Positions 2,940 through 4,407 of a stretch of 5,452 nt of DNA are shown here, piece after piece (position 1 is the stretch's first letter; each line of letters starts with the position of its first letter). The translations under genes were made by a program, and so were the position numbers. The notes under the pieces are model-generated. The model was not told the DNA's origin. It ran no database searches and saw nothing but the letters and a program-made list of their open reading frames with translations. Source of the stretch: a virus (lineage: Duplodnaviria; Heunggongvirae; Uroviricota; Caudoviricetes). The DNA is taken from IMG/VR virus record IMGVR_UViG_2778261005_000009, one strand, 5' to 3'.

Positions 2940-3497
2940 ATGAGCACTATTACCAGAGAACGCGCGGAGATTAAATCATACATCACAGGCTTCCTGAGCG
3001 ACTCGGCGCACGATAACAAGTCTTCAGACAGCCTGCTGGCTAATGTGTTTCGTATCGCGCTGGCATCACTGGAAGCAGAGCCGATAGCAATGGTAGTGCC
3101 TGATGAAATGGATTTGCTTACCTGCCATCTCGACGGTGTAACTAAAACATATGCTGATGGCTGGAACGCCTGCCGCGTCGCCATGCTTCAGGCCGGAAAC
3201 TTTCGGGAAAATAAGAATTCGTCAACCAACAATTTTCGGGAAATCTCGGAAACGTCAACCAGATCTCCGATAACTCTGGATGGCTGGATAAGCTGTACTG
3301 AGCGAATGCCTGAAAAGAGCCAGAACGTGCTTATTTCGATGAATATCGATAGCGAGGCTGGGCCATTAATATATTCCGCACGCTATCTCGGAGGCACGTT
3401 CCGGCGCGGAGGTATAGCAGTTAGTCCGGGTAATGATCTTAGGCAAGCAACCCACTGGATGTCGCTACCAGAACCGCCGCAGGAGGTGAATCAATGA
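2940..3497 (+). CDS. DUF551-like phage protein (185 aa)
   Basis: ATG 2940 preceded by AAGGA (2927-2931) at 8-nt spacing; stop TGA 3495-3497. The C-terminal segment (ITLDGWISCTERMPEKSQNVLIS...YLGG..F) resembles the DUF551 domain as I recall it. The linker contains an in-frame tandem duplication (see repeat feature). Confidence 0.75.
   Translation: MSTITRERAEIKSYITGFLSDSAHDNKSSDSLLANVFRIALASLEAEPIAMVVPDEMDLLTCHLDGVTKTYADGWNACRVAMLQAGNFRENKNSSTNNFREISETSTRSPITLDGWISCTERMPEKSQNVLISMNIDSEAGPLIYSARYLGGTFRRGGIAVSPGNDLRQATHWMSLPEPPQEVNQ
3198..3263 (+). repeat. Imperfect in-frame tandem duplication (2 x 33 bp) inside the DUF551-like gene
   Basis: aaCtttcgggaaaATAAGAATTcgtcaaccaAC (3198-3230) versus aaTtttcgggaaaTCTCGGAAAcgtcaaccaGA (3231-3263); encodes NFRENKNSSTN / NFREISETSTR. 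Confidence 0.6.
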
Positions 3498-3577
3498 CCT
3501 GGCCTGAAGCATTCACAACGGTAGGAATTGCGATGGCGGTGGCGCTGGTGGTGTATTCGATTTGCCGCTGGGGATAA
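3494..3577 (+). CDS. Putative 27-aa hydrophobic micro-protein, translationally coupled to the DUF551-like gene
   Basis: ATG 3494 forms an ATGA overlap with the upstream stop and is preceded by AGGAGG (3481-3486) at 7-nt spacing; stop TAA 3575-3577. Product MTWPEAFTTVGIAMAVALVVYSICRWG is a single predicted TM helix. It falls below the ORF-track length cutoff. The SD may be coincidental, since it also encodes residues of the upstream protein. Confidence 0.35.
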   Translation: MTWPEAFTTVGIAMAVALVVYSICRWG

Positions 3578-3612
3578 AAACGGTTTGCGGGAAAAGGATA
3601 GTTAAGTAGAAT
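3574..3612 (+). promoter_or_regulatory. Candidate promoter for the hok mRNA
   Basis: Candidate -10 elements GATAGT (3597-3602) or TAGAAT (3607-3612), with a weak -35 (TTGCGG 3585-3590 for the latter). Placement is constrained by the 5'-3' complementarity, which requires the transcript to start at or before about 3613. No strong consensus match. Confidence 0.25.
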
Positions 3613-3630
3613 TGCTGCGGGTGCTTGAGG
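3613..3630 (+). promoter_or_regulatory. 5' element of hok mRNA complementary to its 3' end (tac/fbi-like long-range pairing, 5' partner)
   Basis: tgctgcgggtgcttgagg (3613-3630) pairs antiparallel with cctcaacgcacccgcg (3993-4008): 6 bp, a one-nucleotide bulge (C3999), then 10 bp including one G-U. Confidence 0.45.
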
Positions 3631-3664
3631 CTATCTGCCTCGGGCATGAACACCAACGGCAGAT

Positions 3665-3739
3665 AGAGAAAAGCCCCAGTTAACATTACGCGTCCTGCAA
3701 GACGCCTAACATTAATCTGAGGCTCAATCTATGAACGGC
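3665..3739 (-). ncRNA. Putative Sok-like antisense RNA (type I antitoxin), about 75 nt
   Basis: Minus-strand sigma70-like promoter (below) would start transcription near + coordinate 3739. The transcript is antisense to the upstream in-frame ATG (3731) and its SD (GAGG 3719-3722). It ends in a terminator-like structure on the minus strand: outer stem ccucag/cugggg (3717-3722 with 3674-3679, one G-U), inner stem gcguc/gacgc (3690-3694 with 3701-3705), then U-tract cuuuucucu (+ 3665-3673). Ends are approximate. Confidence 0.4.
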
Positions 3740-3745
3740 AAATCT

Positions 3746-3774
3746 AGGTTAGCCTCTTACGTGCCGAAAGGCAA
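3746..3774 (-). promoter_or_regulatory. Candidate promoter of the Sok-like antisense RNA
   Basis: On the minus strand: -35 TTGCCT (+ coordinates 3774..3769), 17-nt spacer, -10 TAACCT (3751..3746). The -35 overlaps the hok SD region on the opposite strand. Confidence 0.35.
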
Positions 3775-3787
3775 GGAGAAGCAGGCT

Positions 3788-3943
3788 ATGAAGCAGCAAA
3801 AGGCGATGTTAATCGCCCTGATCGTCATCTGTTTAACCGTCATAGTGACGGCACTGGTAACGAGGAAAGACCTCTGCGAGGTGCGAATCCGAACCGGTCA
3901 GACGGAGGTCGCTGTCTTCGTAGACTACGAATCTGAGAAGTAA
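3788..3943 (+). CDS. hok: Hok/Gef-family type I toxin (51 aa membrane peptide)
   Basis: ATG 3788 preceded by AGGAG (3774-3778) at 9-nt spacing; stop TAA 3941-3943. Product MKQQKAMLIALIVICLTVIVTALVTRKDLCEVRIRTGQTEVAVFVDYESEK aligns along its length with plasmid R1 Hok ([52 protein letters not shown]) and is very close to chromosomal HokD/RelF as recalled. The track ORF 3731..3943 is an in-frame upstream extension (ATG 3731), possibly a mok-like leader reading frame. Confidence 0.9.
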   Translation: MKQQKAMLIALIVICLTVIVTALVTRKDLCEVRIRTGQTEVAVFVDYESEK

Positions 3944-3992
3944 GAGACCAGGCGGGGGAGTAATCTCCCGCCACCTCTGATGTGTCAGGCAT

Positions 3993-4008
3993 CCTCAACG
4001 CACCCGCG
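3993..4008 (+). promoter_or_regulatory. 3' element of hok mRNA complementary to its 5' end (fbi-like, 3' partner)
   Basis: cctcaacgcacccgcg (3993-4008) is the antiparallel partner of 3613-3630. It implies a transcript of about 400 nt, similar to the known R1 hok mRNA length. A further imperfect hairpin lies at 3951-3972 just after the hok stop. Confidence 0.45.
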
Positions 4009-4009
4009 C

Positions 4010-4037
4010 TTTACCATACTGAAAATGCTGTTTGAAT
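4010..4037 (+). promoter_or_regulatory. Candidate sigma70 promoter with extended -10 for the YgiW/BOF-family gene
   Basis: -35 TTTACC (4010-4015), 16-nt spacer, TG at 4029-4030 followed by -10 TTGAAT (4032-4037). Position fits a transcription start about 20 nt upstream of ATG 4063. Weak consensus. Confidence 0.3.
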
Positions 4038-4062
4038 GTTCATCTCTGAAAGAGGACTATGA

Positions 4063-4407
4063 ATGAAAAAGGTATTGATTGCAGCACTTATTTCCGGTGT
4101 GTCTTTTGGCGCTTTTGCACAGCAGGGTGGTTTCCAGGGGCCAGAAGCAGAGCGTTCAACAGTAGCGCAGGCAAAAGAACTGAAGGATGATGCATGGGTT
4201 ATCCTTGAAGGGAGCATCGTTAAAAAAGTGGGTGATGAACGTTATGAGTTTCGTGACAATAGCGGGACAATTGTCACGGATATTGATGACAGCGTATGGG
4301 CCGGGCAGAATGTTTCTCCGAAAGACAAAGTAAGAATTGAGGGTGAAATTGATAAAGACCTGAGCAGTGTTGAAGTTGATGTAAAGGCACTGAAATTATT
4401 AAAGTAA
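4063..4407 (+). CDS. YgiW/YdeI (BOF, bacterial OB-fold) family periplasmic protein with signal peptide (114 aa)
   Basis: ATG 4063 preceded by AGAGGA (4051-4056) at 6-nt spacing; stop TAA 4405-4407. N-terminal signal peptide MKKVLIAALISGVSFGAFA followed by QQGGFQGP, then C-terminal IVTDIDDSVW...VRIEGEIDKD...VEVDVKALKLLK, which matches the BOF/YgiW pattern. Confidence 0.88.
   Translation: MKKVLIAALISGVSFGAFAQQGGFQGPEAERSTVAQAKELKDDAWVILEGSIVKKVGDERYEFRDNSGTIVTDIDDSVWAGQNVSPKDKVRIEGEIDKDLSSVEVDVKALKLLK

Follow-up and report, generated by a model that had tools for sequence, protein, structure and literature searches.

A very probable sok antisense gene, allelic to sokW, in a complete hok/mok/sok module of an E. 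coli lambdoid Stx-phage-like prophage

The antisense RNA Sok of plasmid R1 is 64 nt long and consists of an 11-nt 5′ tail followed by a stem-loop; it blocks mok, and the resulting duplex is cleaved by RNase III (PMC1635323). The hokW-sokW module of Sp5, whose Hok is about 44% identical to Hok of the R1 type, was studied by Takada et al. 2021 with primers that match the allele of phage 933W (PMC8621323). A northern probe with the + strand sequence of 3710-3739 (here and below, positions are those of the window defined in the next paragraph) detected sokW RNA, which was gone after mitomycin C, and partial RNase III and Hfq dependence was reported (PMC8621323). Primer YO-421 changes the + strand from TAGGTTA to CCGGCTC, that is, the minus-strand hexamer at 3751..3746 from TAACCT to GAGCCG (PMC8621323, Table 2). 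This -10 mutant of the Sp5 locus was toxic on induction, antitoxin activity being lost, and a fragment equivalent to 3637-3791, placed on a second plasmid, gave partial rescue in trans (PMC8621323). hokW-sokW is proposed to help with lysis and with the release of phage upon induction, rather than with the maintenance of a plasmid.

The window is the whole stretch of DNA that was analysed, 5,452 nt of IMG/VR virus record IMGVR_UViG_2778261005_000009. We consider it very likely that 3669-3774 on its minus strand holds the sok gene of a type I toxin-antitoxin module, hok/mok/sok, which is complete, spans about 3607-4010 and belongs to an E. coli lambdoid Stx-phage-like prophage. The locus is an allele of sokW, an element already known. 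It aligns with 933W and VT2-Sakai at 97.0% identity over 461 nt, and mokW, hokW and sokW are annotated there. Because the alignment contains no indels, the annotations of the 933W record (AF125520) can be transferred directly, and they fall at 3669..3739 (-) for sokW, 3731..3943 for mokW and 3788..3943 for hokW. The sokW misc_RNA was annotated in 1999, and its ends in the 933W record are predictions by homology. Megablast hits to the 461-nt locus come from 78 phage records and, among 5426 complete E. coli genomes, from 4710. Rfam family RF01794 matches the window at 3619-3793 (+) over its full length (model positions 1-157; 105.6 bits; gathering score 59; E = 5e-24), and the Hok reading frame matches the Pfam family HOK_GEF, PF01848 (81.1 bits; cutoff 22; E = 4.3e-23). 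The only other Rfam matches in the window were to two snoRNA families (E about 0.3), far under the gathering score, and we dismissed them as chance.

All parts of such a module can be placed in the window (Table 1). The antisense promoter is flanked by the mok start on one side and the hok Shine-Dalgarno sequence (SD) on the other, and its RNA covers the mok translation initiation region. Sok has a single-stranded 5′ tail and one stable stem-loop that doubles as the terminator, while the mok leader frame overlaps hok and starts from a separate SD and AUG, both located before the hok SD. The toxin frame is of the Hok/Gef family and of about 50 aa, and the fold-back of the hok mRNA (5′ tac with 3′ fbi) is a predicted pairing. 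A sequence-only reading of the window had proposed a Sok antisense gene at this place; it was right in position, strand, hexamers, start point and terminator, and it matches the sokW annotation of 933W.

Table 1. Elements of the hok/mok/sok module in window coordinates
Feature	Position	Strand	Basis and remarks
hok mRNA 5′ end, tac element GGGUGCUUGAGG	3619..3630	+	Rfam model position 1; putative start
Predicted Sok RNA, about 71 nt	3669..3739	-	Mapped from sokW (misc_RNA) in AF125520; ends by homology
Sok stem-loop and intrinsic terminator	3671..3725	-	Folds and comparative pairing; covers the mok SD (3719-3722)
Apical extension GCGUCU-UGCA-GGACGC	3689..3706	-	16-nt insert relative to the Rfam consensus; 17-nt insertion relative to other hok/sok families
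Sok target hairpin of the hok mRNA	3719..3756	+	Fold; same columns as the Rfam structure line
Sok 5′ recognition tail	3726..3739	-	Unpaired in the fold; antisense to the mok AUG and the target-hairpin loop
mok reading frame, 70 codons	3731..3943	+	ORF list; in frame with hok and contains it; mokW at the same place in 933W
Sok -10, TAACCT	3746..3751	-	Direct reading; identical in 933W
Sok -35, TTGCCT	3769..3774	-	Direct reading; shares its last two bases with the hok SD, AAGGAG (3773-3778)
hok toxin gene, 51 aa	3788..3943	+	PF01848; SD AAGGAG at 3773-3778; hokW in 933W
fbi element, hok mRNA 3′ end	3993..4005	+	Predicted pairing with the 5′ end

The Sok promoter reads TTGCCT-17-TAACCT on the minus strand at 3774..3746, exactly where the sequence-only reading had put it (AGGCAA at 3769-3774 and AGGTTA at 3746-3751 on the + strand, with a 17-nt spacer at 3752-3768). 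The same reading had the promoter overlapping the hok SD, which is so for the last two bases of the -35 hexamer but not for the rest of the promoter. The match to consensus is 4/6 at -35 and 3/6 at -10, with no extended -10, and hexamer pairs of equal stringency occur three times in the window versus 5.6 +/- 2.5 times in shuffles. Since this count is not above that of shuffled sequence, the hexamers alone are no evidence for a promoter. A consensus scan of 3450-4100 for promoters and terminators (threshold 9/12, with stem and loop limits) reported none; as the hexamers are under the 9/12 threshold and the bulged hairpin is outside the stem/loop limits, this result is uninformative rather than negative. 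Among the fetched loci described below, the -35 position is TTGCCT or TTGACC, the spacer is 17-18 nt, and the -10 is mostly TAnnCT, with bases T1, A2 and T6 kept in most homologues. The architecture of the promoter is kept across loci of Escherichia, Kluyvera, Photorhabdus, Erwinia and Pantoea. Conservation of the block 3746-3787 cannot be credited to the promoter alone, because the block also contains elements of the hok mRNA, namely the hok SD hairpin and complementary boxes. The identification of Sok rests on homology, on the experiments of Takada et al. 2021 and on comparative structure, with no weight given to the hexamers alone.

Mutation of the -10 hexamer, with loss of antitoxin activity as the expected outcome, had been proposed as a check of the antisense gene. 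This result is already published for the 97%-identical Sp5 locus, and since the TAACCT hexamer is the same and the promoter (hexamers and spacer, 3746-3774) is identical in the window and 933W, the check has in effect been done. The published -10 mutation also changes the sequence of the hok mRNA, and it is by the partial trans-complementation alone that the two effects can be told apart. Transcription of the antisense RNA and neutralisation of the toxin are thus demonstrated for sokW, and by homology they would extend to the tail allele of the window.

The predicted Sok RNA consists of 5′-GCCGUUCAUAGAUU (the 14-nt single-stranded tail), a 55-nt hairpin and a terminal UU-3′. A 6-nt discriminator followed by G at 3739 places the start at the standard distance from the -10, and the start near 3739 given by the sequence-only reading agrees with the mapped sokW annotation. 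An RNA that starts there has full complementarity to 3719-3733. This had been described as perfect antisense to the ATG at 3731 and the SD at 3719-3722 of hok; the complementarity stands, but both elements belong to the mok leader frame (mok SD GAGG, 3719-3722; mok ATG, 3731-3733), and hok has its own ATG at 3788 with its own SD.

Folded as the minus-strand RNA 3739..3669, the region gives -32.6 kcal/mol (z = -5.9), and 0 of 200 shuffles were as good. The nested stem at 3674-3722 and the U-tract after it are present where they had been placed, and the fold is above chance. At the base of the hairpin C3674 pairs with G3722, and the minus strand then continues GGGGC-UUUU-CUCU (3673..3665), in which UUUU is 3672..3669. 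The U-tract is short, with four U only (UUUUCUCU). The idea of a two-stem terminator held for the structure and the U-tract but not for the number of stems: the structure is a single interrupted hairpin of 7 + 9 + 6 pairs (22 in all), in which the apical 6-bp stem comes from a clade-specific insertion. This apical extension is confined to prophage hokW-type loci; hokC-type loci and those of Photorhabdus, Erwinia and Pantoea lack it. The extension is GC-rich, and one locus (L024) has a compensatory change in it, from G-C to A-U. Position 3706, which faces 3689 and is left unpaired in the hairpin of both strands, is C in the window and T in 933W, in the closest E. coli genome and in nearly all other hokW-type loci.

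The octamer TAACATTA occurs at 3681-3688 and again at 3707-3714, as the sequence-only reading had it. The direct repeats exist, but as the opposing arms of the middle stem and not as a feature in their own right. Because the arms (UUAAUGUUA and UAAUGUUAA) pair via two G·U wobbles, they read as near-identical direct repeats on the + strand. A role of the repeats as a binding site or a duplication scar was considered and ruled out, since they coincide exactly with the two arms.

On the hok mRNA, the target hairpin holds the mok SD, the mok AUG (3731) and the loop AACGGCAA (3735-3742), which is complementary to the first bases of Sok. The loop has no YUNR (U-turn) motif. This says little, because only 29 of 46 tail alleles carry a YUNR just after the mok AUG. 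The likely -10 of the hok mRNA promoter is TAGAAT at 3607-3612. A fold of the whole of 3619-4010 (z = -6.7) brings 3619-3630 together with 3993-4005, in the centroid as well as the MFE structure, and this predicted tac-fbi pairing is the fold-back of the R1 model.

For the window allele, the mechanism is claimed on sequence geometry, homology, strand-specific structural conservation with covariation, and the tac-fbi fold-back; the exact Sok ends, tail-first binding, Sok instability and mok-hok coupling we infer. A sigma-70 promoter (TTGCCT, 17 nt, TAACCT) would fire at about 3739 and give an RNA of about 71 nt, made up of one long terminator hairpin preceded by the single-stranded 5′ tail of 14 nt. 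By analogy with R1, the full-length hok mRNA would be inert, and 3′ trimming would refold it. The Sok tail could then dock on the target-hairpin loop of the processed, refolded mRNA, from where pairing would spread across the mok AUG and SD and block mok translation. As translation of hok would be coupled to that of mok, no Hok toxin would be made, and the duplex of Sok and hok mRNA would then be cleaved by RNase III. Once Sok synthesis stops, which for sokW would be on prophage induction, the unstable Sok would be gone and the stable hok mRNA would be translated.

The strand on which the hairpin is maintained bears on whether there is an antisense RNA at all. The hairpin (3673-3723) and the block 3746-3787 might be no more than leader elements of the hok mRNA, with the hexamers there by chance. 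Such an explanation would fit a hexamer match that is not above chance, an Rfam model of the region that is hok-sense, and the fact that the region also folds on the plus strand (-23.4 kcal/mol, z = -3.8). The minus strand of the same bases, a stretch slightly longer than the predicted Sok, folds to -35.9 kcal/mol (z = -5.9), and in the window the minus-strand fold is 12.5 kcal/mol better than that of the plus strand. For comparison across loci, 47 genomic and 80 viral Hok-relative loci were fetched and their leaders aligned, and the hairpin alignment contains 36 distinct Sok-sense sequences with 22 pairs scored. Among these 36 homologues, 97.0% of the cells are paired (standard pairs) on the minus strand, and seven pairs of the hairpin have compensatory changes on both sides. 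In a control in which the partners were slid by 1-3 columns, only 32-44% were paired. RNAalifold, run unguided, also arrived at the outer stem and the middle stem. Pairing across the columns of the 22-pair hairpin falls to 79.1% when they are read on the plus strand, because the 118 G·U pairs of the minus strand become A·C mismatches there (only 4 G·U pairs are found on the plus strand). Such a difference between the strands is an argument that it is the antisense RNA for which the hairpin is maintained. Together with the northern-detected RNA and the working trans-complementation of the 97%-identical locus (PMC8621323), it makes an explanation by mRNA leader elements alone extremely improbable.

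Given a Sok RNA, its ends might be other than those in Table 1, with a start a few bases off, or read-through past a weak UUUU to give a longer RNA. The short U-tract, the terminator scan without a match and the homology-based ends of the 933W record all leave room for this. Against it are the sequence GGGGCTTT at the base of the stem, invariant in 36/36 homologues, the R1 Sok of the same design with its 64 nt (PMC1635323), and the standard -10 distance of the G at 3739; we regard different ends as unlikely. The module might instead be a decayed, non-functional copy in which Sok is still encoded and a working toxin is no longer regulated. The window does differ from the tested sokW at eight of the 15 positions of 3730-3744, and its target loop is one of those that lack a YUNR. 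Chromosomal hok loci of E. coli K-12 are also said to be largely inactivated, as Pedersen and Gerdes reportedly found in 1999. In the window, by contrast, both the hok and the mok frames are intact, both SDs and the tac-fbi pairing are in place, and the Sok hexamers are identical to those of the functional sokW. Since Sok is cis-encoded, any mutation of its tail brings with it the complementary change in the target. The tail allele of the window is moreover found at a minimum of 99% identity in 1609 complete E. coli genomes. Decay is therefore very unlikely, and a complete hok/mok/sok module with its own sok gene is the reading that we prefer.

Variation in the locus is highest around the Sok tail. 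In a set of 41 distinct hokW-type loci, the nucleotide diversity (pi) is 0.326 for the Sok tail and discriminator (3724-3745), a hot spot that also includes mok codons 2-5. It is 0.078 for the Sok hairpin, 0.038 for the block of the Sok promoter and hok translation initiation region, and 0.059 for hok third-codon positions, and the rest of the locus lies between 0.04 and 0.10. The 130 fetched loci have 46 distinct tail alleles. E. coli ECMA0423 and S. flexneri SFBU1023 each contain three co-resident loci (L003/L006/L007 and L004/L009/L011, respectively), all with different tails. Of 5426 complete E. coli genomes, 1628 carry the tail allele of the window (3712-3762), and in 1609 of these the identity is >= 99%. 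One strain with the allele is E. coli 2013C-4538 (NZ_CP027582), at 99.6% identity. The RefSeq records listed with this allele have no feature under it, and both mok and sok are uncalled.

This pattern suggests selection for distinct recognition specificities, and it may alternatively come from recombination rather than selection. That the Sok 5′ tail and its target form a specificity determinant under diversifying selection, with many orthogonal alleles that give each prophage a private hok/sok switch, is a proposal that we make tentatively, at slightly less than an even chance. If it were true, co-resident lambdoid prophages would keep hok/sok switches that are not silenced by the Sok of their neighbours. 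The 55-nt hairpin region is shared, and may permit cross-repression between tail alleles. The tail diversity amounts to a natural set of candidate orthogonal antisense/target pairs, and offers an idea of why multi-prophage genomes tolerate several copies of hok/sok. The passages available to us of a preprint on Hok diversity, which treats the Hok proteins and their locations, contain no account of Sok tail variation (10.1101/2025.08.07.668861).

The neighbourhood of the locus is the early/nin region of a lambdoid prophage. The surrounding genes encode a lambda-P-like replication protein, DUF1627 and DUF551, and in the closest genome they are followed by YgiW/BOF, DUF968, RusA and Q. An unannotated reading frame of 27 codons at 3494-3577 (+) encodes a hydrophobic peptide, MTWPEAFTTVGIAMAVALVVYSICRWG, and begins with an ATG that shares bases with the stop of the DUF551 gene (ATGA). 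It is intact in 37 of the 38 related loci that have the stretch, and has no Pfam match.

For annotation, the strand of the Rfam model is of some consequence. RF01794, named "sok antitoxin (CssrC)", aligns with the hok-sense strand, starting at the 5′ end of the hok mRNA and stopping at the hok AUG, and it does so again on the locus of an IncFII plasmid (L130, 374-545 (+)). As it lies on this strand, the model describes the leader of the hok mRNA, not the antisense RNA of roughly 70 nt. Automatic "sok" calls made with RF01794 would be on the wrong strand and about 2-2.5 times too long. RefSeq annotates only a "Hok/Gef family protein" at such loci, and the stretch of Sok and mok is left blank. 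The locus confirms that a type I antitoxin RNA gene can be correctly recovered by reading the sequence alone, and otherwise adds little.

Compared with loci of the R1 type, represented here by the flm locus of the F plasmid and by an IncFII Klebsiella plasmid, the window has the same gene order and the same logic. In hok/sok of R1 (Sok) and flm of F (FlmB), which provide the paradigm of a type I antitoxin RNA, the target is likewise the mok SD/AUG, and the ends of the mRNA pair. The flm promoter, TTGCGC-17-TATCCT, aligns with TTGCCT-17-TAACCT of the window at the equivalent minus-strand position. The spacer motif GCCTCTTAC is common to the F/R1-type loci and the window, as is a single terminator hairpin that ends in GGGGCUUUU and comes after a 5′ tail. 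The differences lie mainly in size and location. The Sok hairpin of the window is about 17 nt longer than that of R1, for an RNA of about 71 nt versus 64 nt, and the tail has 14 nt rather than 11. The window locus and sokW are phage-borne, whereas the R1 and F loci are plasmid-borne.

The resemblance to 933W and to Sp5 (VT2-Sakai) is much closer. These have an identical Sok -35, spacer and -10, an identical HokW protein region, the same hairpin with its 17-nt apical extension, the same tac and fbi elements, and the same downstream neighbour, a gene of the YgiW/BOF family. The genomic settings differ, in that the 933W locus is near one end of the linear record, whereas the window locus has the DUF551 gene on one side and the YgiW/DUF968/RusA/Q genes of the prophage nin region on the other. 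Between the window and 933W there are 14 differences in 461 nt. Two are further single changes in the hairpin, at 3696 and 3706, while the eight within 3730-3744 are at 3730, 3734-3738, 3741 and 3744, and six differences lie within the tail (3726-3739). Because the tail and discriminator differ at these eight positions, Mok residues 2-5 differ as well, and are NGKS in the window and LNTC in 933W.
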